Assembly: GCA_963677925.2 (NCBI GenBank)
Contig: CAXXYH010000003.1
Span: 672,001-736,000, forward strand
Length of the DNA: 64,000 nt
Direction of reading: 5' to 3'
Origin: Spirochaetia bacterium
GTDB taxonomy: Bacteria > Spirochaetota > Spirochaetia > UBA9216
In this document: positions 33,064 to 46,772 of the stretch, one piece after another
How positions within the stretch are numbered: the first letter of the stretch is position 1
Layout: each line of letters begins with the position of its first letter
Program-made: the position numbers and the translations under genes
Notes under the pieces: model-generated
Database searches by the model: none
What the model was told of the DNA's origin: nothing
Seen by the model: the letters and a program-made list of their open reading frames with translations, nothing else

Positions 33064-34008
33064 ATGAAAATAGACCGTCTGTTATCAATCGTAGTATACC
33101 TTCTCAACAGAGAACTTGTCAGCGCCAGTGAGCTGGCAGATAAATTTGAGGTTTCGGTACGTACAATACAACGGGATATGGAAGCTATCGACCTGGCGGG
33201 GATTCCGGTTGTTACAGTCCAGGGTCCCCGCGGCGGCTACGGGATTATGAAGACATTTAAACTTGACCGTCAGCTTGTCAGCCCGGAAGATATTTTCTAT
33301 ATAATTACAGCGCTGAAGAGCATAAGCGATTCAATTGACAATCCGAAACTTGAGAATACTCTTGAAAAAATGAAAGGACTTATGCCCGGAGTACCGGGAG
33401 AATCCTTTTTAAAACATAGTTCCAAACTTCATATCGATTTTACAATGTTAGGCGGCGGACCCGATCAGAAGCGGATATTTCAGATAATAAATACCGCGGT
33501 AGAAAAGGAAAAACTGCTCAGAATCAGCTACACAAACAACAAACTGGAAAAAGATACCAGAATAATAGAGCCGATGACCATTGTTTTCAAATGGAGGGCA
33601 TGGTATCTCTATGCCTGGTGCAGAAGCAGGGAGGATTACAGGTTTTTCCGCATTTCGAGAATCAGGGAACCGGAAATCCTCGAGCGGGGATTTATCAGAA
33701 GAGATCAAGGCTATGAAGAGTTTGAATCGCGGAATTCATATGGTCCCACAGGTACCGGCAGCGGCAGTATTGAAATAAAACTGCATTTTAAAACACCTAT
33801 GACCGATCTGGTTGAAGAATATTACGATGAAAAGAACTGTGAAAAACTTGATGACGGCAGCATAATTTGTACGGTTTCAATGCCTGAAGACGGCTGGCTT
33901 TACGGCTATATTTTAAGCTTCGGTGAATATGTAGAAGTTCTTTCTCCGCCCCATCTGCGAAAGATAATAAAAGAAGGTGCCAAAAAGATTTCCGAAGTCT
34001 ATGATTAG
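33064..34008 (+). CDS. YafY-family HTH-WYL transcriptional regulator
   Basis: ELADKFEVSVRTIQRD HTH, GPRGGY, RAWYLYAWC, RFFRISRI, C-terminal WCX (ILSFGEYVEVLSP). Confidence 0.93.
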   Translation: MKIDRLLSIVVYLLNRELVSASELADKFEVSVRTIQRDMEAIDLAGIPVVTVQGPRGGYGIMKTFKLDRQLVSPEDIFYIITALKSISDSIDNPKLENTLEKMKGLMPGVPGESFLKHSSKLHIDFTMLGGGPDQKRIFQIINTAVEKEKLLRISYTNNKLEKDTRIIEPMTIVFKWRAWYLYAWCRSREDYRFFRISRIREPEILERGFIRRDQGYEEFESRNSYGPTGTGSGSIEIKLHFKTPMTDLVEEYYDEKNCEKLDDGSIICTVSMPEDGWLYGYILSFGEYVEVLSPPHLRKIIKEGAKKISEVYD

Positions 34009-34202
34009 GGTTTCTCTTCAGTTAAAAACCAGTCGTATAATTCCTGTCCTGAATAAATTTCGGGCTGTATGTAGTGAGTACCCTTCTGTGTAATTGTATA
34101 TTTAATATTACCGCCTGCATTATTCAGCTTCATAATAAAATTGATTTCATCCTTAATCTGTATAGGGAGATCATCCAATTCACTAGAAGTCCATACTGGC
34201 AG
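34005..34202 (-). pseudogene. C-terminal remnant of an alpha/beta-hydrolase (phospholipase/carboxylesterase, COG4099-like)
   Basis: Manual translation gives LPVWTSSELDDLPIQIKDEINFIMKLNNAGGNIKYTITQKGTHYIQPEIYSGQELYDWFLTEEKP*, preceded by an in-frame TAG; the N-terminal part is missing. Confidence 0.6.
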
Positions 34203-34305
34203 CTAAAAAACCTTTTATGCCAGCACTTAGAATCTGAATTTTTTTCAACCCTCTCTTTTTTATATTATTTAAATCATCAGTAGAGATACAGACTGCCAGT
34301 GCAAT

Positions 34306-35436
34306 TCACTCTCTCAGCATTTTACGGTAATAAGCTGAACTTCCGGTCTCTGAGATCTCCAGTATCAGCTTCGCTGTAAAGCTGCCTATACCGCGGATTG
34401 CGGTTAACTCTTCATAACTCATTTCTGCAATCGGCTTGTCATTTTTAGTGAGAGAATAAACCGCATAACCATATGGGCTTTCACGATTTTTAAGCTTCAG
34501 CAGCCAGTCAAGCTGTTCCAGAATAAGTATAATAAGTTCATCCCTCGAGACTATAGACTCAAAAATCTCAGAAGGTATTCGTTTTGCCATAGCATATCTG
34601 GATGCGGCAGTATTAAAGCGCCCGGCGATAGCTGATGTATATGCCGAAGACGGTGCCCCCCAGCTGTTTTCATTACTATAAATCTTGTCGTATCCGTTTT
34701 TTAATTCAGGATGGTAATTATCCAGAAAATTCATAAAATAATCTTTCTGCCTGCCCGGTTTAAGTGTCATACCGCTGAATACAACGTAATCTGCTCCGGC
34801 CTTTGATGCAGCCGCTACTGACGCATCGATCTGCTCTGCAGAATCTGTAATGCCCGGAACAACCGGCATAAGAAACATTCCGCAGTTAAGTCCGGCCGCT
34901 TTTATGCTTTTCATAAGAGCAAGACGCTTTGAAGGCAGAGGCACCCCCGGTTCCAGCAGTTTTCCGAGTTCATCATCAACAGTTGAAAAACTGAAACTGA
35001 CCGTTGCCCCTGTGTTTCGGTTAATATCAAGCAGAAGTTCCAGATCCCTCTCAACCAATGTTGATTTAGTCAGGATATGAACCGGATGATTAAACTCACG
35101 GAAAAGTTCCAGAGTCTGCCGGCATAGCTGAAGATCCGTTTCAAAGGGCTGGTATGAATCGCTTACTCCGCCGCAGATGATAAAATATCCGTTTTTAAAG
35201 GGTTTTCGCTTCCTGGAAGGATCAAGCTCCTTTCTCAGAAGTTCAATTGCATTGCTTTTTACACTCACATCACGTCCGAAAACGCCTTCAACCTGATATT
35301 TTTCATCACGGCCGTCACAGTAAACACAATTATGAGTGCATCCTCTGTACAGGTTTATAGCATATGCGCTAACAAACCAGGAATCGATCTTCTTATACTT
35401 CCTTAATATGCTTTTAGCCTCTATTTCAGTAATCAT
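34306..35436 (-). CDS. SplB/Rv2578c-like radical SAM protein with C-terminal helix-hairpin-helix
   Basis: NLYRGCTHNCVYCDG, SDSYQPFE, ILTKS, LEPGVP, IRGIG HhH; start set at MITEIEAK. Confidence 0.85.
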   Translation of the reverse strand: MITEIEAKSILRKYKKIDSWFVSAYAINLYRGCTHNCVYCDGRDEKYQVEGVFGRDVSVKSNAIELLRKELDPSRKRKPFKNGYFIICGGVSDSYQPFETDLQLCRQTLELFREFNHPVHILTKSTLVERDLELLLDINRNTGATVSFSFSTVDDELGKLLEPGVPLPSKRLALMKSIKAAGLNCGMFLMPVVPGITDSAEQIDASVAAASKAGADYVVFSGMTLKPGRQKDYFMNFLDNYHPELKNGYDKIYSNENSWGAPSSAYTSAIAGRFNTAASRYAMAKRIPSEIFESIVSRDELIILILEQLDWLLKLKNRESPYGYAVYSLTKNDKPIAEMSYEELTAIRGIGSFTAKLILEISETGSSAYYRKMLRE

Positions 35437-36286
35437 CCGTAATGAAGTCTTTCCTTTTAAAATGTCTGTCCTTGTATTTATATTCGTCAATATTCAGCAA
35501 ATCAAGGACTAGAAGAGGATCCTTTTTTACCAGATTTCTGCAGGCTCTGTATGCAATCCAGTGAGAATCCGGGTTTCCGGATTCTGCAAGCTGTTTAACA
35601 ACAGGGAAAGTAAGTTCAGGGTTTATCCTCAGCCAGTCGCTGAGGCTGTTACCTGCTGAAGTTCTGGGATAGGGAGAAGATTCAGTATACAGTAGTTTCA
35701 GCACAGAAAATGCGAAATCGGGAGCATTCTTAAACCAGCGATTCTCTGCTACCGGTCGCAGCGATTCAGAAGCAAAACGTCTATGCAGGGGATTATCGGA
35801 TACAGCCATTTCCAAATACCAGGGTTTGACGAGCGCGTTGTGTGATTTCACGAGCTTCCTGATGAAGCCGGAACTGCATTCCCTCACAATCCAGTCTTCA
35901 TCTTCAGAAGCTTTTCTGAATAATGACATAACAGGGTCTAAATCACCTGTTTCTTGAGCATACAGTGATGCCAGCTGAATACCCAGGCTTCTGACAAATG
36001 TATCATTCTCTGTATTTTTGTACAGAAGACTTCCGGCATCGAGAATCTCATCAATATCTAATAAGCCGGATTCCAAAATGAATATGCCCAGCTCCATCAC
36101 GACAGAATAGCGGCCGATTGATATTCTCTTCTTATCGGGTATTGATGCATGCAGAAGCCTGATAAGCTCTTCTGTTTGCGGGCCTGCTGAAACAGTGTCA
36201 AAAACTCCCCAATCTGAGAGACTTCTTTGTAATTCAGAAATTATTTCAGGCTTAATTATTTTATAAGGATAGTTATTATTTCTCAC
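35426..36286 (-). CDS. HEAT-repeat DNA alkylation repair protein (AlkC/AlkD-like)
   Basis: DEDWIVRE, RRFASESLRP, YPRTSAGNSLSDW; GTG start; overlaps the radical SAM gene. Confidence 0.72.
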   Translation of the reverse strand: MRNNNYPYKIIKPEIISELQRSLSDWGVFDTVSAGPQTEELIRLLHASIPDKKRISIGRYSVVMELGIFILESGLLDIDEILDAGSLLYKNTENDTFVRSLGIQLASLYAQETGDLDPVMSLFRKASEDEDWIVRECSSGFIRKLVKSHNALVKPWYLEMAVSDNPLHRRFASESLRPVAENRWFKNAPDFAFSVLKLLYTESSPYPRTSAGNSLSDWLRINPELTFPVVKQLAESGNPDSHWIAYRACRNLVKKDPLLVLDLLNIDEYKYKDRHFKRKDFITDDY

Positions 36287-36380
36287 AGATTAAATATACC
36301 ACGCAGGAATCAATTTTCACAGAATGCATTCGACGATTTTTCTTGACGAATTAGCAAAGTCGTGTAAAAGTAAAAGTTAC

Positions 36381-37244
36381 ATGTTAGAAGCACCTGTGAA
36401 AAATCAGTGGATCAACAATAATTATTCTATCGGTGAGGTCTCAAACATATTCGGTATTCCATCAAAAATGCTGAGATACTGGGATAGTATTAATCTGTTA
36501 AAACCATATAACGTCGATCAGATTAATGGCTACAGATACTACTCCTCATCTCAGTTTTATCTAATTAATTTCATTAAATACCTTAGAAAACTAGATGTCT
36601 CATATGACATGATTAAGACAAAGTTGAATGAAACAAACATCCAGAGTCTTGAAGAGCTGATGATAGAGCAGATAAATGAGACAGAAAACAAGGTAAGAGA
36701 GCTCTCTAATATCAAAAAGACCTTCACAAGCCATATAGAATCTATAGAAGAGGCTCTGCATAATAAAGAAGTCGAAGTTATTCACATTGCCAAGGCAAAG
36801 GATTTTAAGCTGATATATCTTGAATATCCCTTTGATAACCGAAAAGATTTTGAAATAGCTGTGAGAAAACTTGAATCTGTTCTTGAAGGCAATCCCACGC
36901 TTTTGATTTCACAGGTTTCCACTGTATTCAGCAAGGACGATTTTATTAACGGTACTTATAATCAGTTTATTGGAATCAGCCTTAAATACGGTATATATAA
37001 ATCCCGCAATAAATATGTTCAAAAAGTACCGGAGGATTCCGAATACGCTACGATGAGGTTCTGGGGCAGTCTCAATAACTCTGACGATTATTATAATAAG
37101 CTTAAAGATTTTCTGAAAAATGAAGATTATGAAATTGCCGGCGATGTTATCAGAAAATGTGTAGCACCCGGTACCATATCCGGAAAGCATGACCATCTTG
37201 CAGAGCTTTATGTTCCCGTAAAAAAAATTAATAAAAATATTTGA
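36381..37244 (+). CDS. MerR-family regulator with GyrI-like effector domain (BmrR/BltR type)
   Basis: YSIGEVS...LRYWDSINLLKP...NGYRYY HTH, coiled coil, GyrI-like C-terminus (YEIAGD...ELYVPV); start uncertain (36324 or 36381). Confidence 0.88.
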   Translation: MLEAPVKNQWINNNYSIGEVSNIFGIPSKMLRYWDSINLLKPYNVDQINGYRYYSSSQFYLINFIKYLRKLDVSYDMIKTKLNETNIQSLEELMIEQINETENKVRELSNIKKTFTSHIESIEEALHNKEVEVIHIAKAKDFKLIYLEYPFDNRKDFEIAVRKLESVLEGNPTLLISQVSTVFSKDDFINGTYNQFIGISLKYGIYKSRNKYVQKVPEDSEYATMRFWGSLNNSDDYYNKLKDFLKNEDYEIAGDVIRKCVAPGTISGKHDHLAELYVPVKKINKNI

Positions 37245-37271
37245 CCTTCCCACAGTGGTAAGGTTTACCAT
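37241..37271 (+). promoter_or_regulatory. MerR-type promoter/operator of the glycyl-radical operon
   Basis: TTGACC (37241-46), 19-bp spacer, TACCAT (37266-71); dyad ACCTTCCCAC-A-GTGGTAAGGT (37244-64, 9/10 match). Confidence 0.88.
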
Positions 37272-37303
37272 CATTTATACCAAAATAAATGAGGGTTTAC
37301 CTA

Positions 37304-38227
37304 TTGGCTGATCAACACATAAAGGGCTGGGTTTTCGATATTCAGCACTACTCTATTCATGACGGGCCCGGAATAAGAACAACTGTATTTCTAAGCGGCT
37401 GTTCATTAAGGTGCAAATGGTGCCAGAACCCGGAATCTCATACAATTAAACCGGTATTATCTTTTAATGCTGATAAATGCATAACATGCGGCGCCTGCAT
37501 CAGTGTATGTCCGGAGAAAGCGATCTTTATTGAAGATAATAAAATACATACAAACCGCAAATTGTGTACGGCATGCGGAGCCTGTGTGCCCGTCTGTCCT
37601 ACTGAAGCCCGAAGTATAATCGGCAAGGAAATGACAGCGGCTGAAGTTATTGCTGATGTCGAATCGGACAAGATTTTTTACGAAGGTTCAGGAGGGGGAG
37701 TAACTTTAAGCGGAGGGGAAATCCTTTTTCAGCCTGAATTCTCCCGGACACTGCTGGCAATGCTAAAAGAAGCTGGAATATCAACTGCAGTTGAAACCAC
37801 AGGAAACGCGGACTGGGAAGTAGTAAAAGACACTATAAAAGATGCCGATCTTGTTCTTTATGACCTTAAACACATGGATTCCGAAGGACATAAATTCGGT
37901 ACAGGTGTAGGGAATAAAAGAATTCTTGAAAACATAGTTAAAATTAAGAAAGAACTGAATATTTCTGTCAATATTCGTATCCCCCTTATACCTGGATATA
38001 ACGATTCATCAGAAAATCTGAATCAGACAGCCCGATTCATCAAAGAGCAGCTGGGTGAAGACACACCGGTAAGTCTTCTTCCTTATCATCGAATGGGAAT
38101 CGGGAAATGGGAACAGCTTGAAAAAGAAGCTCCTTCCTTTGAGGCTGATCCGCCTGATGATGCACATATGAATTCTGTAAAATTTATTTTCGATCAGTAT
38201 AACCTGATCAGTCAGATTGGAGGCTAA
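37304..38227 (+). CDS. Glycyl-radical enzyme activating enzyme with 2x[4Fe-4S] insert
   Basis: HDGPGIRTTVFLSGCSLRCKWCQNPE; CITCGACISVCP and CTACGACVPVCP; GGGVTLSGGE; TTG start after GAGGG (alternative 37289). Confidence 0.95.
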   Translation: MADQHIKGWVFDIQHYSIHDGPGIRTTVFLSGCSLRCKWCQNPESHTIKPVLSFNADKCITCGACISVCPEKAIFIEDNKIHTNRKLCTACGACVPVCPTEARSIIGKEMTAAEVIADVESDKIFYEGSGGGVTLSGGEILFQPEFSRTLLAMLKEAGISTAVETTGNADWEVVKDTIKDADLVLYDLKHMDSEGHKFGTGVGNKRILENIVKIKKELNISVNIRIPLIPGYNDSSENLNQTARFIKEQLGEDTPVSLLPYHRMGIGKWEQLEKEAPSFEADPPDDAHMNSVKFIFDQYNLISQIGG

Positions 38228-38228
38228 A

Positions 38229-40616
38229 ATGACACCAAGAATTGAAAAGATGCTGAATGAGCTGCATGTCGAAAAATACCCCCTGTGCATTGAAAAATTC
38301 CGCATCGCAACCAAGACTCTTTCAGAAACCGAGGGGCAGCCGAATGTTCTGCGTCGTGCGCAGATTATGAAGAATATCCTCGAAAACATAACAATTTTCA
38401 TCGAAGACGGCGATCTTTTTGCCGGCGCCGGTGCAAGCAAGCCATTCGGACTTGAGATTGATTATGAATACGGAACCTGGACTCCGGATGAGGTTGATTC
38501 GCTCAAATCCGAAAACTACAGCATTACCCCTGAAGAAGAGAAAGAACTTCAGGAAATTAATGAAAAATTCGGTGATTACAACCTTGTTTCAGCTATGGGC
38601 GCTGTCTTTATGAAGAATGAAAAACTCTGGCCGTTTATGAAATCAGGAATGATTCTCCCTCCATGGAAGGGAAAAGAAGGAAGCGGCGGCGGATATGCAC
38701 AGTCAGGTCTCGGACTGGGACCCGGCTTCTTTCTTGTCGGTATGGATTTTGAAAGAATGTTAAATGACGGTTCATTAAAAATCATCGCGGACTGTGAAGC
38801 AGCACTTAAAGAACATGAAGCCAATGGAAATCCTGATAAGGAAGCTGTAGACTTTCTTAAATCTGTTATTATTGTTCACCATGCAGTAATAAAACTGGCT
38901 GAGAGATATGCTGATCTGGCAGAAAAAATGGGTGCTGAAGAAAATGACAAGCGGAGAAAAGCAGAACTTTTCAGAATTGCTGAAGCCTGCCGAAAAGTTC
39001 CTGCCAAACCAGCTGAATCCTTCTTTGAAGCAATTCAGTCTTTCTGGTTAACATTCCTGCTTGCATCACCATCACCTACAACAGCCGGTGCCCGATTCGA
39101 CCAGTTCATGTATCCATTCTATAAAAAGGATATTGAAAACGGTGTAACAAATGATGATGAAATTCTCGAACTGCTTGAGAACCTCAGAGTCAAAGACATG
39201 AAGCTTAACCGGGTTTCAGGAAAACAGAATAGAAAGAAAAATGCAGGCATGGCAAAATGGCATAACTGGACTATCGGAGGTGTAGATAAGGACGGTAATG
39301 ATGCCAGCAACCCGCTCACCTACCTTCTTCTTGATGCAGCAAAAGAAACCAGAGTGCCGCATCATACCCTGACACTTCGTGTTCATGACAAAACACCTGA
39401 TGATCTTATGGTAAAGGCTCTTGAAGTCGTAAAAACCGGTATGGGAATGCCTGCCTTCGTAGGAGATAAATCCTACATCAACTTCTTCCGCTATCAGGGG
39501 ATGTCCATTGAAGACTCACGCAATTACATTATGACCGGATGTCTAGATGGAAATATCCCGGCGAAAGCAAGAACTGTTGCCGTAGGAATGTTCATAATTG
39601 CACTTGCATACGATATCTTCATGCACAACGGATATAACAAGGGTACAGAGGAAATGGTCGGTATTGAAACCGGTGATGTAACCGGAATGTCTGATTTCGA
39701 CCTGTACAAGGATGCATTCTACAGGCAGCTCGACTATCTTCTTGAACTTGGAGTTGAAAAAAGCAATATCGAGCTTAAAGCTGAACAGGATCTTTTCCCC
39801 GACCCATTCAGATCATCACTTATGAAAGATGCTATCAAGGAAGGCAAGGACATTCTCAGAAGAACCATGCCGCTTGAGAACGGACTTGTTCTCTGTACAA
39901 TTGGAGCAATAAACGTAGCAGACTCGCTGGCTGCAGTTAAAAAGCTTGTGTTTGATGAAAAGAAATACACAATGCAGGAACTTCTCACTGCGCTGGATGC
40001 TGACTGGGAAGGTTACGAAGAAATGCGGCAGGATTTCCTTGACGCACCAAAGTACGGTAATGACATTGATGAAGTTGATGTACTGGCAGCAGAGCTGTAT
40101 GACCATATAGAAAAGAAGCTGGCCTCGATGCCTACTTACTACGGCGGACGTGCAGTAACAACTGCTATTTCAATAACCTCGCACCAGCCGGGTGGACTTC
40201 TTACAGGAGCAACACCAGACGGACGAAAGAGCGGGGAGATTCTTGCAGACGGTTCAATGTCCCCGATGCATGGTATGGACAGAAAAGGCCCTACGGGTGT
40301 TCTAAAGAGCGCAATGAAAATCAACCAGGACACCTACCAGGCAACTCTGTTAAATATGAAATTTCATCCATCTGCTCTTAAGACAGAAGCTGATCTTGTA
40401 AAACTCGGAAACCTGATTAAAACTTATTTTGCCCAGGGCGGAAAACATATGCAGTTCAATATAGTTGATAAAGATCATCTAATTGCTGCAAAGATTGATC
40501 CTGAAAAGCACAAGGATCTTGTAGTAAGAGTTGCCGGCTACAGTGCTTATTTTACAGCGCTTGGGGAACCAATGCAGGACGAAATTATCGAAAGAACTGA
40601 ATTCTCTCAGGTTTAA
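38229..40616 (+). CDS. Glycyl-radical enzyme (PFL2-like fold), substrate unknown
   Basis: RFDQFMYP, TIGG, Cys loop MTGCLDG, PKYGND, GATPDGR, Gly loop LVVRVAGYSAYF; GGAGG SD. Confidence 0.95.
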   Translation: MTPRIEKMLNELHVEKYPLCIEKFRIATKTLSETEGQPNVLRRAQIMKNILENITIFIEDGDLFAGAGASKPFGLEIDYEYGTWTPDEVDSLKSENYSITPEEEKELQEINEKFGDYNLVSAMGAVFMKNEKLWPFMKSGMILPPWKGKEGSGGGYAQSGLGLGPGFFLVGMDFERMLNDGSLKIIADCEAALKEHEANGNPDKEAVDFLKSVIIVHHAVIKLAERYADLAEKMGAEENDKRRKAELFRIAEACRKVPAKPAESFFEAIQSFWLTFLLASPSPTTAGARFDQFMYPFYKKDIENGVTNDDEILELLENLRVKDMKLNRVSGKQNRKKNAGMAKWHNWTIGGVDKDGNDASNPLTYLLLDAAKETRVPHHTLTLRVHDKTPDDLMVKALEVVKTGMGMPAFVGDKSYINFFRYQGMSIEDSRNYIMTGCLDGNIPAKARTVAVGMFIIALAYDIFMHNGYNKGTEEMVGIETGDVTGMSDFDLYKDAFYRQLDYLLELGVEKSNIELKAEQDLFPDPFRSSLMKDAIKEGKDILRRTMPLENGLVLCTIGAINVADSLAAVKKLVFDEKKYTMQELLTALDADWEGYEEMRQDFLDAPKYGNDIDEVDVLAAELYDHIEKKLASMPTYYGGRAVTTAISITSHQPGGLLTGATPDGRKSGEILADGSMSPMHGMDRKGPTGVLKSAMKINQDTYQATLLNMKFHPSALKTEADLVKLGNLIKTYFAQGGKHMQFNIVDKDHLIAAKIDPEKHKDLVVRVAGYSAYFTALGEPMQDEIIERTEFSQV

Positions 40617-40625
40617 CTAGGGTAT

Positions 40626-40649
40626 AATGCCGGAGGAGGACCCGGCATT
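40626..40649 (+). other. Intercistronic stem-loop between the GRE and transporter genes
   Basis: AATGCCGG / CCGGCATT with 8-nt loop; weak U-tract. Confidence 0.6.
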
Positions 40650-40672
40650 TAAATATTTACTTTCAAGGGGGA

Positions 40673-41959
40673 GTGATGACGATTATCATCATCAGTCTAA
40701 TTGCAATTGTTGCTGTAATTGCATTAGGAGCTAAAACTAAAACTAATATAGGTCTGTGGGCTATAGCTGCAGCCTATATTATCGGAGTCTTTGTCCTTGG
40801 CGAATCACCACGAGGTTTAGTGGGAGTATTTCCAACAAGACTATTTCTGCTGCTTTTTTCTGTTACACTTTTCTACAGCTTTGCCGTACTTAACGGAACA
40901 CTAGGAAAAGTCGCGGATAAGGTCGTTTATGCTGTCCGGAACATGCCATGGGCAATTCCCATTGTACTGTTCATACTGTCATTTATTATGGCTGCGATAG
41001 GAGCCGGAGACGGTGCTACCGTTATGATGATTCCTATCGGTCTGTCCATAGCTAAAGTTACCGGAATGAATAATATTCTTGCCGCGGTATCCTGTGTATC
41101 AGGTATCAGTGCAGGAGGTTTTTCACCGATAAGTACCGCAGGTATCTTCCTCAGGGAGATGGCCATGACTGCAGGCGGACATTCGATTGACGAAGTAAAC
41201 AGTTATGGAAACCATGCGTTTTTCCAGATTACACTTCTTTTCACAATTATATTTATTGCTGCTTATATCCTCTTCAAGGGATATAAAATTGAAGCACCGG
41301 TTCTTGAAAAACCTGAACCCTTCGAACCGAAACAGAAGGCAAACCTTGCTGTTATTATCGGCTTTGTTCTAGTTCTGGTTGCGGCACCGCTTGTTGGACT
41401 TATTTTCCCGAACAGCCCTGCTGCTGCAAAAATAGCCCGCGGTGTATACCTGGTCTGGATTGCCTTCATCGGTACAGTAGTTCTCTCTGTACTGAAAGTC
41501 GGTGATGAAAAAGCAGCTTTTAAACGTGTCCCTCTTTCCGCACTTACAACACTCTGCGGTATGGGAACACTTATCGGAATAGTCAGCAAAACCGGAGCCA
41601 TTGAGATGGTATCGACATGGCTCGGAGAAAGTGTTCCGGTTGCAATCGTACCGATTATGCTTGCACTTATTGCCGGAGTAATGAGTCTTTTTGTAAGCGG
41701 ATTCGTAGTTAACACTACTTTCTTTGCCCTGGTTCCTGCTCTGGCAATAGCCGGCGGATTTGTACCGGGTATCGGCTATGCAGCTGTAGCAGTCGGAGCA
41801 ATGGCTACTGCAGTCTCTCCGTTCTCAGGTTCAGGCGGTCTTGTAGTCGCAAGCGTTGACGATGACGGTCACAGAAAAACAATTTTCAATTTCCTGCTTG
41901 GCTGGCCGTTTATAAACCTTGCACTCTATTTAATTATGGTTGCTATAGGTATCTATTAG
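40673..41959 (+). CDS. MatC/SLC13-like (ion-transporter superfamily) carboxylate transporter
   Basis: Highly hydrophobic, about 11-12 TM; NIGLWA, FPTRLFLLLFSVTLFY, AGGFSPIS, VSPFSGSGG typical of MatC-type carriers. Confidence 0.8.
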   Translation: MMTIIIISLIAIVAVIALGAKTKTNIGLWAIAAAYIIGVFVLGESPRGLVGVFPTRLFLLLFSVTLFYSFAVLNGTLGKVADKVVYAVRNMPWAIPIVLFILSFIMAAIGAGDGATVMMIPIGLSIAKVTGMNNILAAVSCVSGISAGGFSPISTAGIFLREMAMTAGGHSIDEVNSYGNHAFFQITLLFTIIFIAAYILFKGYKIEAPVLEKPEPFEPKQKANLAVIIGFVLVLVAAPLVGLIFPNSPAAAKIARGVYLVWIAFIGTVVLSVLKVGDEKAAFKRVPLSALTTLCGMGTLIGIVSKTGAIEMVSTWLGESVPVAIVPIMLALIAGVMSLFVSGFVVNTTFFALVPALAIAGGFVPGIGYAAVAVGAMATAVSPFSGSGGLVVASVDDDGHRKTIFNFLLGWPFINLALYLIMVAIGIY

Positions 41960-41980
41960 CATCGTCCTAATAATTCCTTT

Positions 41981-43681
41981 TCATTTTGCTCCGGCTGAAG
42001 TTTCAGCTAAAGCCGGAGCCCTTTTTTTTGTATTAAGTGAATTCATTTTTTTACTGAAACTGTTAAGCTGACTGACATTTTCCTGTCCAATTTCAGAGAC
42101 TCTTACAGCCTGGGCTTCTGCATCAGTGAACATTCTTTTTATATCAGATATTGTTTCAGCTACGGTTTCTGCTTTGCTTACTATCTCATCGAGCTTCTCT
42201 GTATTCTGTGCATTTATATTCTCAAGGTTTTTCATAGCTTCATCTGCAAGAGCTGATTTATCAACTATTCCTTCAATTTCCGACAGAATAGCACCAGTCC
42301 CCTGAGACATCTCATCTATACCTGCAGAAGCCTCCCTGAACATCGATGAAACCTTTCGTATTTCTTCTGTAATTAAATGAAATGTCTGCCCTACTCTCTG
42401 ACTGGCTTCAGTAGTTCTGCTGACTGCAGATATACTTTCTGATAGACGTTCAGAAATATTCCTTGAATTTTTAGCTGTTTCTTCCGCCAGTTTTCTTATT
42501 TCATCTGCAACAACAGCAAAACCTTTACCTGATTCACCTGCATGGGCTGCTTCAATTGCAGCATTCATTGCCAGCAAATTTGTCCGTTCAGCAATGCTCA
42601 TAATAATCTGGACCATCTCAAGCATGTCAGAGGAACTCTTGTCGATACTGTTAATCAACTCGACAGAATCATCCATTTCAGATTCACCCGACATCGAGGA
42701 TTTAACCAGGGCCTCCACAGCCTTCATCTGCGAGGCCGTATTTGATGAAATTGAATTAATGTTGGCAATCAGCTGTTCTACGGAAGAGGATGTAGTCTGT
42801 ACCGTCAGATTGTATTTTTCCAGGGTTGAATTGAGAAACTCTACTGATTCAACAGATTTTTTATTGGCTCCTGACATTTCAAATATGCTTGTTTCCAATT
42901 CTTCAACAGAGTCTTTTATCCGGTTTAAATCTAATGAAACCCTGCTGATCGTATCAATAGATGTATCTGATGAACTCCTCAGCTCCTCGCCTATTCCGGT
43001 GAAAATTTCAAATGTTTCATGGACACCCGTATTAAACTCGGCAAAATGTTTCTGAACTTCTGCCTTTGAATCTTCCGCATCTTTCACAAGAGTTTTAAGC
43101 AGCCGCAGTATCATAACTGCTGTAAAGCCTGAGCCGATAACAATTATATAACAGGTAACAAGATTCTGAACATCCAGGATACCGACCTGCCCCTTCTGCG
43201 AGGGAAGAACATCAATAAAGTAAATTGCAGCTATTGCTCCACAGTTTAATATAGTTGCAGCAACAGGCTGGAATATAGAATATCCAACAAGACAGGTAAT
43301 AATCAGAAAAAACAACCCAAGTGCTGAAATTACGTAGGTTTCATATACATCTACATATGCATCAAACTTGATTGTTGCAAAAATTATAAAAAAGAATACT
43401 GTCAGAAATAAATTTACGGCAATTTTAAAATTTCCTTTTTTAATCAGTAAAAGAAAAAATAAGCAGCAGACAGCCAGAACTGAAGTCATAACCATAGCAA
43501 CAACCGCTCCGGTTAAAGCCATTGCAAGTGTCAGCAACAGAGAAAGTATAATAAAAAGAAAATTGATAACTACAAGAATCGAAGCTTTTTTCTGAACTTC
43601 GAGCGGACGTTCTGAATAACATTTTAAGAAATATGCACTTGTTCTACTCATATTTAAATTTATATTGATTTTAATTGACAT
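41981..43681 (-). CDS. Methyl-accepting chemotaxis protein with multi-pass membrane sensor
   Basis: About 5-6 N-terminal TM helices; [38 protein letters not shown] hairpin. Confidence 0.93.
41988..42029 (+). terminator. Terminator of the GRE operon (overlaps the 3' end of the MCP gene)
   Basis: GCTCCGGCT (41988-96) / AGCCGGAGC (42011-19), then T8. Confidence 0.8.
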
Positions 43682-43691
43682 GTCCAGCTGT

Positions 43692-44465
43692 TTATTTATT
43701 AATTATATTTTCAAACCTTTTAACACTGATGGGATGATAGCTAAGGATTTTCCCGTCATGAATAATTCCGAATGAACCGAAGGGACTCGGAGATTCCTGA
43801 ACCTGTTCATGTGAACTGAGTTCTATCAGCTGAGAATTTAGCCTTTTTTCTTCAGCAGCTTTTATTATGGCGTCAACATTCTTAACCGTGTACGGGCATT
43901 GGGCTGATCTGAAAATATAAAGCCCCATCGAAAACTTTTCCGGGAAGATTTTCCGGAATTCCGGATTTGGATATGCATCATCAAATTTATTAACAAGCAG
44001 TTCAAAATCAGGCTTAGATGAATCTGATACTTTAAAATTGTTATTTATAAAAATGCCGCTGTCAGCCATGAAAGATCCCCTGCGGGCAACAACTGCAACG
44101 CCTTTATATCCGGAATTACGGCTTTCTTTTATACATTCTTCAATCAGCAGTGAGGCATAACCTCTGCCTTTGTATTCTTTTCTAAATCCCACAAAGAGAC
44201 AGTGTATAAACATGTAGCCTTCAGCTTTCACCGGTCTGTGTGCATATTCTCCGGGAATATATTCTATCATTCCCTGATATCCGCCCTCTGGATGTATCAG
44301 TGCTTTTATCCGGAGCCCCTTCGGGTAGTATTTTTTTACCCAGTCGATTTTCCGCCTCAGTTCAAGATGCTTTTGCACATCCTTATATCCGCAGACACCG
44401 TACTCTGCTATGTTATCCGGTGTAAGATCAATTATCTTAATATCATCTGATACGGCTTTTGACAT
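43692..44465 (-). CDS. GNAT acetyltransferase with YoaP domain
   Basis: [16 protein letters not shown]...[20 protein letters not shown]; start set at MSKAV. Confidence 0.85.
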
Positions 44466-44535
44466 TTTTCTACCCTCTGAAACTATAATACTTCCCTGCT
44501 GCATTTTCTGCTTTGCAATCTTTGCGAAATTTAAT

Positions 44536-44555
44536 TACGACATACTGCTGTCGTA
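44536..44555. promoter_or_regulatory. Inverted repeat, candidate WYL (YafY)-regulator operator
   Basis: TACGACA-N6-TGTCGTA between the divergent GNAT and GyrI genes; TG-C-AATAAT just downstream. Confidence 0.65.
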
Positions 44556-44601
44556 TACAGGGTGCAATAATGAATTATCGTTAAAACAAAGGAGTTCCAT
44601 T

Positions 44602-45054
44602 ATGAAGATAATTCAGAAGGAAGAACAGCCGACTATGGCTGTAAAAGGAATCACAACAATGCAGGAGATACCTGCCTTTCTTGCAAAAGCATATGGAGAG
44701 ATAGCCGAATATGCTCAAAATCTTGATATTCAGTTCACAGGTGCGCCCTACGCAATGTATTTCAACATGGATATGGATAATCTGGAAATTGAAGCCGGCT
44801 TTCCAGTTTCAGGAACTTTCGAAAAAAGAGGTAATGTAAATTCCGGACATCTTCCCGGAGGAAAGATGCTGATTGAAACGCATAAGGGCACATACGCAAA
44901 TCTTAGTGAAACATACGACAAAATTAGCGAATATGCGAAAGATAAGGGTATAGTTTTTGAAACAGCCATGTATGAACAGTACCTGAATTCACCCGAGGAT
45001 ACAAAGCCTGAAGACCTTATCACAGAAATTTATTTTTATATTAAGGAAGAATAA
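44602..45054 (+). CDS. GyrI-like small-molecule-binding protein
   Basis: GAPYAMY, EAGFPV, HKGTY, EQYLNSP...LITEI; AAGGAG SD before 44602. Confidence 0.88.
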   Translation: MKIIQKEEQPTMAVKGITTMQEIPAFLAKAYGEIAEYAQNLDIQFTGAPYAMYFNMDMDNLEIEAGFPVSGTFEKRGNVNSGHLPGGKMLIETHKGTYANLSETYDKISEYAKDKGIVFETAMYEQYLNSPEDTKPEDLITEIYFYIKEE

Positions 45055-45332: not shown

Positions 45333-46772
45333 TCAGGCTTCAGCCCTCAATTCCGGCTGAAGCTGTATATTTTTATAATCATCCTTTTCAGTTTCCATAT
45401 CAGCTTTTCTTTCCTCATCAGCCCTGCCGAGCTTCTTTAATTCTACAATAAGCAGGATATAGGTAAGTACTGATGATAAGGTGTCTGCAACAGGGAAAGT
45501 TCCCCATACACCATCAAGCCCTATTATAAGCGGAAGTATAATAAGAACAGGCAGAAACAGCAGCAGCTGTCTTGAAAGACCGAGAAGCATTGACTGCTTC
45601 GCTTTTCCTACGGCCTGAAAATAGCTGATTCCGATAAACTGCACCGCCACCAGTGGAATTGATACCATTACTATTCTGAGCACTCTTGCACTGGATTCAA
45701 TTATCGCAGTGTCTGATGTAAAAAGACCCATACAAGCCTGGGGAAAAATCATGGCAATACTGTAGCCTACCATCGTAACTGACAATCCGGTAATTATTGC
45801 AGTCTTAAGGCTTTGCTTAACCCTGTCATAATTCTTTGCACCGATATTGTAGCCTGCAATCGGCTGAAAGCCCTGTGCAATCCCGATTATAGGCATAATC
45901 AGCACAGACATAAACCGGTTTGACATTCCGTAGTTTACTATGGCTTCTTCTCCGCCGTAATGCCCAAGCGAATTGTTAACAATCAGAACAAGCAGACTCA
46001 TCCCTGCATTCTGAATAAAGGGCGGAATACCGAGAATGACACTTTCTTTCAGAATTTTTGTATCAATTCTAAAATATTCAGGTCTAATCTTTACTGTATT
46101 TTTTTTCCTTACATAGATACTTATGAAATACAAGGCGGAAACCATCTGACTTATGGAAGTGGCAATAGCAGCACCCATAACGCCGAGGTCAAAACCGAAT
46201 ATAAACAGGGGGTCAAGCATACAGTTAAGGACTGCCCCCACCATCATTCCTATCATTGCGCCTTTTGAGTTTCCTTCCGCTCTTGCCATTGTACTTGCAA
46301 AGGATGAAAAAGCAAAAAAGAAAAATCCGATTGAAACCCATTTTGTATATTCCGATGTAAGCGGCATAAGCACATCTGTAGTTCCGAAAAATCCAAGTAT
46401 AGGCCTCATAAAAATAACAAGTGTTGCAGTAAGAATAAATGTTCCTGCAAGCATGGAAGTGTATCCGGTTCCTACTGCTTTCGATGCATCATCAAACCGT
46501 TTTTCTCCAAGTCTTCTTGATACAATGGAGGCTGTACCTATTCCCAGAGCCATTGCTATCGAGGCAACAATCATCTGAATTGGAAAAACCAGAGATAGTG
46601 CTCCTATTGCGAGCGACCCTACCCCTCTTCCAACGAAAATAGTATCAACAATGTTATATAACGCCTGTACAAGCATTCCAGCTGCAGCAGGTGCGGCCAT
46701 CTTTATTAAAAGAGGGAATATCTTCTCTTTTCCCAGAAATTCTGATTTATCTGTATTATTCATATCTTTCAT
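45333..46772 (-). CDS. MATE efflux transporter (MepA-like)
   Basis: ALYNIVDTIFVG, LDPLFIF, GAAIAT, QPIAGYNIGA, SRQLL. Confidence 0.94.
   Translation of the reverse strand: MKDMNNTDKSEFLGKEKIFPLLIKMAAPAAAGMLVQALYNIVDTIFVGRGVGSLAIGALSLVFPIQMIVASIAMALGIGTASIVSRRLGEKRFDDASKAVGTGYTSMLAGTFILTATLVIFMRPILGFFGTTDVLMPLTSEYTKWVSIGFFFFAFSSFASTMARAEGNSKGAMIGMMVGAVLNCMLDPLFIFGFDLGVMGAAIATSISQMVSALYFISIYVRKKNTVKIRPEYFRIDTKILKESVILGIPPFIQNAGMSLLVLIVNNSLGHYGGEEAIVNYGMSNRFMSVLIMPIIGIAQGFQPIAGYNIGAKNYDRVKQSLKTAIITGLSVTMVGYSIAMIFPQACMGLFTSDTAIIESSARVLRIVMVSIPLVAVQFIGISYFQAVGKAKQSMLLGLSRQLLLFLPVLIILPLIIGLDGVWGTFPVADTLSSVLTYILLIVELKKLGRADEERKADMETEKDDYKNIQLQPELRAEA

Follow-up and report, generated by a model that had tools for sequence, protein, structure and literature searches.

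A glycyl radical enzyme of a Cys-x-Asp clade in a predicted regulator-activase-enzyme-carrier operon of a Spirochaetia bacterium

In the present study, a window of 64,000 nucleotides from a Spirochaetia bacterium (GenBank assembly GCA_963677925.2, contig CAXXYH010000003.1, positions 672,001 to 736,000; positions below are those of the window) was analysed. By open reading frame (ORF) listing and profile searches, positions 36324-42029 of its forward strand hold an operon with a BmrR-like MerR/GyrI regulator, a MerR-type promoter, an activase of glycyl radical enzymes (GREs), a GRE of 795 amino acids, a carrier of the MatC/DASS fold and a strong terminator. What appears to be new here is a GRE clade with an altered catalytic motif and pocket, together with its characteristic genomic wiring. 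From its sequence features we read the operon, with moderate confidence, as a catabolic module with one enzyme, induced by a ligand, that would act on a di- or polycarboxylic acid taken up by the cell. An earlier reading of the letters of the window (the original prediction) had described the same co-oriented series up to the terminator at 41988-42029, and every part of it was found in place. It had also put the system forward as the best candidate for an undescribed one in the window. In our literature search neither Cys-x-Asp GREs nor a linkage of a GRE to MatC or PrpD came up, nor did any paper join 'glycyl radical' with the candidate acids; published similarity networks, such as that of Levin et al. 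2017, may already show the cluster. The parts of the operon are as follows.

36324-37244, forward strand: regulator (MerR_1, E 1.8e-13), likely start ATG 36381 or GTG 36396
37241-37271, forward strand: MerR-type promoter, -35 TTGACC, 19-bp spacer, -10 TACCAT
37289-38227, forward strand: GRE activase, a radical SAM protein into which a two-cluster ferredoxin domain is inserted (TIGR02494 at 360.4 bits, cut-off 174.35)
38229-40616, forward strand: GRE of the Cys-x-Asp clade, 795 amino acids, PFL-like (PF02901) and Gly_radical (PF01228) domains
40673-41959, forward strand: MatC/CitMHS-type anion carrier, 428 amino acids (MatC_N 102.2 bits, CitMHS 67.4 bits)
41988-42029, forward strand: intrinsic terminator and end of the operon, GC-rich hairpin followed by U8

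The GRE begins at ATG 38229, one base past the activase stop codon, and its database form is likewise 795 amino acids long. It belongs to the superfamily by both domains, PFL-like at E 1.8e-155 and Gly_radical at E 4.7e-31. The cysteine loop was read as TGCLDG, which bears out the GCLD type assigned by the original prediction; it holds a single Cys, and Cys-Leu-Asp stands in place of the usual Cys-x-Glu. The glycine motif is RVAGYSAYF (RVxG). Cys438 (39540-39542) aligns with Cys433 of glycerol dehydratase (GD), Asp440 is encoded at 39546-39548 and the radical Gly770 at 40536-40538, and the gene of the cognate radical SAM activase adjoins. Every NCBIfam equivalog cut-off was missed by about half. 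The scores, in bits over cut-off, were 513/1000 for HpsG, 473/1050 for CutC, 447/1100 for HypD, 421/1000 for HpfG and 420/1109 for the PflD type, and for decarboxylases and formate lyase 442/1100 (IAD), 352/1150 (HPAD) and 123/994 (PFL, TIGR01255). With the broad PFL2/glycerol dehydratase model TIGR01774 the GRE gave 529 against a cut-off of 678, where nine of ten sampled non-clade GREs gave 820-995. The GREs of solved structure were all low and flat, from CutC at 448 bits through HPAD at 255 to PFL at 99; the solved set comprised CutC, GD, PD, AAD, PflD, HypD, HpsG, IslA, HpzG, IseG, HplG, MasD, HpyG, YbiW and BSS, and its best sequence matches were eliminases and isomerases at 345-448 bits. 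IslA, GD, PD and HplG were absent from the 12 NCBIfam matches, and their solved sequences score 344-437 bits; the decarboxylases PAD and AAD have no NCBIfam model, and the AAD structure 7e7l scores 390 bits. Since the tree described below lacks a characterised anchor, the distance from the known classes rests on these two sets of scores, by which the GRE is outside every CHARACTERISED class. The original prediction had named high-identity clustering with a characterised class as one result that would undo it; every equivalog instead fell far below its cut-off, and the solved classes were all low. A search of the ESM Atlas with the GRE returned generic GRE clusters only.

Several identities were considered for the enzyme and rejected. 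Formate lyases (PFL, TdcE) do not fit a loop with a single Cys or a TIGR01255 score of 123 against 994; PFL is described as having two adjacent catalytic cysteines, Cys418 and Cys419. A multisubunit GRE (HPAD, benzylsuccinate or alkylsuccinate synthase) was set aside because there is no room for a small-subunit ORF and the HPAD model gives 352 against 1150, and the GRE falls short of the curated scores of the characterised decarboxylases (IAD 442 against 1100, HPAD 352 against 1150). A microcompartment GRE locus is not in keeping with the scanned ORFs, which include no shell or aldehyde dehydrogenase gene. By motif the GRE also stands apart from the Cys-x-Glu eliminases and isomerases, having Cys-Leu-Asp, with Asp in all 27 clade rows of our alignment. 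In the sections consulted of a 2026 review (PMC13450708), all eliminases and isomerases of the GRE superfamily are described as keeping Cys-x-Glu, no Cys-x-Asp enzyme is mentioned, and whole GRE clades are said to remain unvalidated.

The Cys-x-Asp loop marks a clade. GC[VL]DG was read in 119 of 121 rows of close database homologs (query counted twice), and among 80 loci from species-representative genomes the GREs at least 42% identical to the query were all Cys-x-Asp, and those at 37% or below were all Cys-x-Glu or other. In a FastTree tree of 86 rows, the 27 Cys-x-Asp rows formed one side of a branch with support 100. The tree omits L012, L017, L020, L022, L024 and L084, in which there was no GRE ORF of more than 700 amino acids with the glycine motif; the 658-amino-acid row L075 was dropped, and L054_17868 (branch length 5) was excluded from the residue counts. 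The tree suggested with the original prediction was thus fruitful for the clade but not for placement among the characterised classes, because none of 10 non-clade branch representatives reached an NCBIfam equivalog cut-off (the closest, L055, gave 1108.5 against 1109 for the PflD type), which leaves the tree without a characterised anchor. Of three long-branch sisters of the clade, the one that was compared (L031_3678) was rejected as an X-succinate synthase, its best matches being IseG at 361 and CutC at 357 bits, with MasD at 318. In a library clustered at 50% identity, Asp stood in 14 of the 18 best representatives and in 20 of the 150 best. A non-Glu loop is not unique in itself, because Cys-x-Glu was present in only 60 of these 150, and many other unstudied GRE groups are without it. 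Five library representatives (P0137, P0145, P0147, P0160 and P0163) have most of the other signature residues (Arg335, Lys343, Trp344, Arg448) with Glu, Gly, Pro or Ser at the Asp position, and P0160 has Ala at the position of the catalytic Cys. Members of the clade occur at least in Spirochaetota, Acidobacteriota, Thermodesulfobacteriota and Bacillota, the last with rumen and gut genomes among them. Homologs of 59-61% identity are present in the cultured Geosporobacter ferrireducens, Youngiibacter multivorans and Murimonas intestini.

The residues below were counted in 27 clade rows and 55 Cys-x-Glu rows, the latter selected by that motif, in the numbering of the 795-residue protein; equivalences were taken from a HMMER alignment to GD and from the multiple alignment.

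Asp440: clade 27/27; Cys-x-Glu rows Glu 55/55; the position of the Glu of Cys-x-Glu
Leu169: clade 24/27; Cys-x-Glu rows His 54/55; equivalent to GD His164 and HypD His160
Pro/Gly283-Thr284: clade; Cys-x-Glu rows His-Ser, with His at 283 in 51/55
Trp344: clade 27/27; Cys-x-Glu rows Phe or Tyr; equivalent to HypD Phe340
Lys/Arg343: clade 27/27; Cys-x-Glu rows Leu or Met; equivalent to HypD Asp339
Arg335: clade 27/27; Cys-x-Glu rows Ala, Thr or Ser
Arg448: clade 24/27; Cys-x-Glu rows Asp, Glu or Gly
Ala451: clade; Cys-x-Glu rows Asp 41/55
Ile647: clade 26/27; Cys-x-Glu rows Tyr 42/55

His378, Thr380, Thr382, Arg320, Arg545, Lys739 and Tyr774 are additional clade-specific residues, and the clade has a 15-residue Gly-rich insertion (PPWK..GSGGG...GLGPG) that none of the 55 Cys-x-Glu rows shows. 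In the clade, GD His164, His281, Asp447 and Tyr640 are each aligned to a different residue; GD His164 and its HypD counterpart His160 are described as essential. As judged from these alignments, the acid/base set of the diol dehydratases is gone, and several cationic side chains and an anion-friendly glycine loop appear to be gained. The GRE shares with the eliminases and isomerases (GD, PD, CutC, HypD, IslA/IseG, HpsG/HpfG, HplG, YbiW, PflD) the two-domain fold family, the single catalytic Cys, an acidic residue two positions past it, the RVxG glycine motif and an activase with a ferredoxin domain. It differs from them in the Asp that replaces their Glu, in the Leu at GD His164/HypD His160, in the Gly-rich insertion and in basic residues at or beside HypD Asp339/Phe340 (Lys/Arg343, Trp344). 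At the level of the locus, a carboxylate carrier is present here and the aldehyde-handling or microcompartment genes of GRE eliminase loci are missing.

Genomic company is the second mark of the clade. Genes within 6 kb of the GRE were tallied at 30 clade loci and 58 other GRE loci, with the following result.

MatC: clade 8/30; other GRE loci 0/58
Any of MatC, Tct, TRAP or SBP5-ABC: clade 16/30; other GRE loci 1/58
PGA_cap: clade 8/30; other GRE loci 0/58
PrpD: clade 4/30; other GRE loci 0/58

The values 16/30 and 1/58 are a contrast and not a statistical test, because the loci are interrelated and the probe proteins came from clade loci. Conserved neighbours had been expected by the original prediction for both transporter and regulator. 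The expectation held for the carrier, as MatC itself (8/30 against 0/58) and more broadly as any carboxylate-type uptake, but did not extend to the regulator: MerR was kept only in the window and in the nearest orthologs, of 97% and 82% identity, with GntR/FCD or PucR-type regulators elsewhere. For regulator homologs a linkage to GRE orthologs of 97, 82, 77, 75 and 66% identity is suggested by numerical coincidence only. The enzyme was present in only four of 41 related spirochaete genomes, its own included. The operon recurs whole in a same-genus genome (regulator 93%, activase 98%, GRE 97%, MatC 97%), a same-family genome has MerR-activase-GRE(82%)-GRE(44%) on a 10-kb contig, and a genome of the same class has GntR/FCD-activase-GRE(68%)-MatC(51%). 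Farther away, GRE-MatC in Geosporobacter (L009, 14848-17847) is followed by acyl-CoA dehydrogenase/ETF genes, and at L010, L015 and L023 (one uncultured Clostridia and two Acidobacteriota) the GRE is accompanied by two 2-hydroxyacyl-CoA dehydratase subunits, CoA-transferase III, PGA_cap and a GntR regulator. PGA_cap (CapA-like) genes were found at these three loci, at L018, L020, L022 and L029, and in the own genome (C4:1350500-1370400, L089). The PGA_cap and PrpD/MmgE-family genes may act before or after the GRE.

Five of the seven GREs of the own genome are of the Cys-x-Asp clade (100, 74, 58, 44 and 44% identity), each with an uptake system of its own. Behind the 74% paralog lies a MatC gene 84% identical to that of the window (G000:C3:1383933-1387660; L088, 7431-11161, reverse strand). 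This second GRE-MatC pair is without an adjacent activase, a MerR regulator or a MerR-type operator, and was not seen in the same-genus genome G001. One 44% paralog lies in a module (G000:C4:213490-220136; L091, 8691-15346) of the order MerR promoter-GRE-MerR promoter-TctB-TctA-TctC-MerR/GyrI paralog (34%), with no activase and no further enzyme; the other sits amid TRAP and SBP5-ABC genes, and the 58% paralog is preceded by TctBAC and by one gene each of the PrpD family and of PGA_cap. In G001, a clade GRE fragment of 48% identity (C9:322218-323744, L099) covers query residues 284-791 with an in-frame TAG and is probably a broken paralog.

The activase has the radical SAM motif C38-x3-C42-x2-C45, with a Radical_SAM match and Fer4 matches at residues 58-107; an alternative start, TTG 37304, is preceded by GAGGG. 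The original prediction had called the module self-contained, which is not fully the case, as the activase is one of only two full-length GRE activases for the seven GRE genes of the genome, the other lying beside a Cys-x-Glu GRE. Because of this disproportion, and because an activase adjoins the GRE at 10 of the 30 clade loci but at 49 of the 58 others, our data suggest that one activase serves several GRE paralogs.

The regulator was predicted as a MerR/GyrI sensor. Its MerR part was supported by Pfam, but the GyrI part by predicted fold and not by Pfam: the C-terminal half searched alone matched no Pfam family at E<=10. By sequence its best solved relative is BmrR (E 1e-11), over residues 32-145, the DNA-binding half only. 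The model, built from 10 sequences (pLDDT 84), has BmrR as a structural match along its full length (E 6.6e-14, 282 columns), and the C-terminal half of the model resembles the GyrI-like ligand binders CTR107, SAV2435, BmrR C-domain, SbmC, Rob and EcmrR. PF06445 is carried by two of the eight regulator homologs found (precomputed annotation), and the 34% identical MerR paralog of the same genome has a sub-threshold GyrI-like match at E 1.1e-4. The assignment as a MerR helix-turn-helix, a long coiled coil and a predicted GyrI-like effector domain stands, the last on fold evidence. As the homologs are 272-285 amino acids long, the start is probably ATG 36381, an ATG internal to the longer ORF that the original prediction had also chosen, or GTG 36396. 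The best full-length NCBIfam match is a choline-utilisation activator, far below its cut-off (49.8 against 450), and gives a weak hint that activators of this kind may drive GRE catabolism. With BmrR of Bacillus subtilis and similar MerR/GyrI-like activators the regulator shares the full-length predicted fold, a size of about 280 amino acids and a predicted target promoter whose 19-bp spacer holds a palindrome; it differs in preceding a radical-enzyme operon rather than an efflux pump and in an effector domain too diverged for Pfam.

In the promoter, -35 TTGACC (37241-37246) contains the regulator stop codon and is separated by 19 bp from -10 TACCAT (37266-37271). Positions 37244-37264 read ACCTTCCCAC-A-GTGGTAAGGT, a 10-1-10 inverted repeat with nine of ten positions complementary that starts inside the -35 element and spans most of the spacer. 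MerR-type promoters are built in this way, with a palindrome inside an over-long spacer, and the predicted target promoter has the 19-20 bp spacer holding an operator palindrome that is expected of a BmrR-like activator. A motif derived from the promoter matched once in the window, with 0.00 matches expected (100 shuffles), and at five sites in the 5.04 Mb of the genome. Three of the five lie within Cys-x-Asp GRE modules, two of these on either side of another Cys-x-Asp GRE, ahead of the GRE itself and ahead of its TctBAC genes; of the remaining two, one precedes a PucR-type regulator gene and one a URO-D-like gene. The latter two (C4:934218-934240 and C4:2311560-2311582) are promoters of the TTGACCTT.CCA-N4-GG.AAGG type, with a PucR-family regulator and ABC permease or a URO-D-like gene downstream. 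The locus of the 97% ortholog (L008) has an identical operator site. At the locus of the 82% ortholog, a related site separates the regulator and activase genes, and the second GRE is preceded by a perfect one. The motif was not found before the second GRE-MatC pair of the own genome.

For the transporter, the MatC-like carboxylate type named by the original prediction was upheld by Pfam scores well above cut-off (MatC_N 102 against 23, CitMHS 67 against 32) and by a VcINDY-like model. A phmmer search against solved structures gave nothing meaningful. The model (pLDDT 77) superposes on VcINDY at a TM score of 0.69 and also on NaDC3, NaS1 and NaCT, the range for VcINDY, NaDC3 and NaS1 being 0.61-0.73; its first Foldseek match was a model of MleN, E 7.5e-8, at a TM score of only 0.50. 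We take the protein to be a likely anion carrier of the ion-transporter superfamily, with a modelled DASS-like elevator fold. The malonate carrier MatC and the DASS family (VcINDY, SLC13) share with it the MatC_N and CitMHS matches and the model superposition. It differs in having no sequence match to a solved structure, and it is 26-33% identical to the MatC-type genes beside clostridial clade members.

The intergenic gaps within the operon are 44, 1 and 56 nucleotides and leave no space for a small-subunit gene, as had been predicted. The predicted absence of shell protein, aldehyde or alcohol dehydrogenase and CoA-transferase was confirmed among the nine ORFs scanned at 33064-44504, and neither shell protein nor aldehyde dehydrogenase was found among four further window ORFs. 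The terminator has a 9-bp GC-rich stem, GCUCCGGCU...AGCCGGAGC, followed by U8, with a folding energy of -20.7 kcal/mol (z -3.74; none of 200 shuffles folded as well), and its hairpin overlaps the final 15 codons of the convergent chemoreceptor ORF (41981-43681, reverse strand). A generic signal scan with 16-18 bp spacers listed neither promoter nor terminator, because the spacer is 19 bp and the hairpin loop exceeds 8 nucleotides. The flanks are functionally unrelated: upstream are a WYL regulator, an Rv2578c-type radical SAM gene and an ORF without assigned function, and downstream are the convergent chemoreceptor, a GNAT/YoaP gene, a GyrI-like protein and a MatE pump. On the reverse strand at 34306-36286, the Rv2578c-family gene, which has a helix-hairpin-helix tail, is followed with a 65-nucleotide overlap by an ORF of 286 amino acids with no Pfam or NCBIfam match. 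The stand-alone GyrI-like protein (44410-45054, E 4.6e-19) adjoins the divergent MatE efflux gene (45333-46772), and the two are possibly a separate drug-response pair.

From these findings we infer a course of events in which the BmrR-like regulator would sit on the palindrome inside the 19-bp spacer and, once a small molecule enters its GyrI-like pocket, would realign the -35 and -10 elements. Such realignment by a ligand-bound regulator is the established MerR mechanism. Activase, GRE and carrier would then be transcribed as one unit up to the terminator, the MatC/DASS-fold carrier would import the anion, and the activase would install the radical on Gly770. The substrate would be held by the clade-specific Arg335, Lys/Arg343 and Arg448 with the Gly-rich insertion, and Asp440 would serve as acid/base in place of the Glu of known eliminases. 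The inducible import and radical conversion of an anionic small molecule put forward by the original prediction is supported by the distance from known classes and by the recurrent carrier linkage. Import is favoured because the paralogous modules use binding-protein-dependent systems, which are import-only; Tct, TRAP and SBP-dependent ABC transporters are all built to work in this direction. Catabolism is favoured because in orthologous modules the place of the MerR sensor is taken by regulators of the FCD and PucR types. For the reaction we put forward, somewhat short of an even chance, an elimination-type or isomerising cleavage beside a hydroxyl or amino group, giving an oxo-acid that would enter central metabolism without further dedicated genes. 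This is proposed because the nearest relatives are eliminases, the acidic residue near the Cys is kept, a central oxo-acid needs no downstream gene, and some clade loci carry enzymes that process 2-oxo- or 2-hydroxy-acids. Decarboxylation has a distinctly smaller share of our expectation, and a chemistry without GRE precedent a slightly smaller one again.

Several points weigh against a catabolic import module with elimination-type chemistry. BmrR-type regulators classically activate efflux or detoxification and not catabolism, and carriers of the MatC type could work by export or exchange and not by import. Asp440 is no guide to the choice between elimination and decarboxylation, since an acidic residue at the second position past the Cys is retained in HPAD and IAD too. 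The picture of the pocket uses GD His281, Tyr339, Asp447 and Tyr640 as residues that line the active site, and the pocket-lining status of the clade-specific residues depends on alignment to GD and HypD. The choice of probe proteins in the tally favours the clade, and 14 of the 30 clade loci have no uptake system within 6 kb, at least two of these being contigs of less than 4.5 kb. The reaction may also be one step of a longer pathway, because genes for 2-hydroxyacyl-CoA dehydratase, CoA-transferase III, PrpD and PGA_cap are present at some of the clade loci.

Among other explanations, the one we take most seriously, though we think it unlikely, is proton-motive decarboxylation, in which the GRE would remove CO2 from an imported dicarboxylate or arylacetate-like acid and the carrier would trade substrate for a product of lower charge. 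Energy would then be conserved by only two proteins, in the manner of the oxalate/formate or malate/lactate systems. This reading accounts well for modules of regulator, activase, GRE and carrier with no downstream enzyme, and it agrees with the naming of MatC after a malonate carrier (Pfam description), with the MleN model as first Foldseek match of the carrier model (E 7.5e-8, TM 0.50) and with the aromatic or hydrophobic ligands of GyrI-like sensors, as given in the titles of the structure matches. GRE decarboxylases are terminal, and some, such as AAD, work without a small subunit. The arylacetate decarboxylases (HPAD, IAD, PAD, AAD) would share with this GRE a carboxylate substrate and a place as terminal, near stand-alone enzymes, AAD being described without a small subunit. 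They differ in that the equivalog scores of the GRE for them (IAD 442, HPAD 352 bits) are below those for eliminase models (HpsG 513), in the missing small-subunit gene here, and in the clade pocket, which probably has conserved Arg/Lys and not the aromatic-binding set. Furthermore, the Tct, TRAP and SBP-dependent ABC importers of the paralogous modules are incapable of exchange, and the CoA-transferase, 2-hydroxyacyl-CoA dehydratase and acyl-CoA dehydrogenase/ETF neighbours suggest further metabolism of the product; radical decarboxylation is described only for cases that give a benzylic radical.

A detoxification or stress module, whose BmrR-like sensor would detect a toxin for the GRE to inactivate and the carrier to export as product, appears improbable. 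The nearest solved relatives of the regulator (BmrR, BrlR, EcmrR) are indeed activators of multidrug efflux, and the GyrI-like protein at 44410-45054 and the MatE pump at 45333-46772 lie shortly downstream; these two, however, belong to other transcription units, regulation in orthologous and paralogous modules is by GntR/FCD and PucR-type proteins and uptake by binding-protein-dependent importers, and five paralogs with five different uptake systems in one genome have the look of nutrient scavenging. We give very little credit to a merely divergent known eliminase (diol/glycerol dehydratase, CutC, HypD, isethionate or DHPS lyase) beside which a transporter lies by chance. By sequence the GRE is closest to CutC, glycerol dehydratase and diol dehydratase, and it retains the acidic residue two positions past the Cys, but the equivalog cut-offs are all missed by about half, other residues stand in place of GD His164, His281, Asp447 and Tyr640, the transporter linkage is clade-wide (16/30 against 1/58), and the locus has no aldehyde-handling or shell gene. 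Moreover, Cys-x-Glu is kept by every eliminase and isomerase of the 2026 review (PMC13450708), against Cys-x-Asp in 27 of 27 clade rows.

Overall, the catabolic import module remains our preferred reading, and the clade to which its enzyme belongs can be recognised by a signature of Cys-x-Asp, Arg335, Lys/Arg343-Trp344, Arg448, Ile647 and the Gly-rich insertion. GREs are known for demanding reactions under anaerobic conditions, and the clade is a good target for enzyme discovery. The carboxylate-uptake wiring narrows the search for the substrate to di-, tri- and hydroxy-carboxylic acids, and the minimal operon of regulator, activase, enzyme and carrier offers a ready-made expression and biosensor unit. 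In a bolder version, which we hold to be rather unlikely, the Cys-x-Asp clade would be a new functional GRE class with a rebuilt acid/base apparatus, acting on aliphatic di- or tricarboxylic acids by a reaction type unprecedented for GREs, such as the radical decarboxylation of a non-aryl acid tied to energy-conserving transport or, independently of B12, a rearrangement of the carbon skeleton or a C-C cleavage. If this were true, the paralogs with their different uptake systems would be a toolkit for related acids, and if the gut members of the clade act on dietary or host organic acids, the finding would be relevant to host-microbe chemistry.

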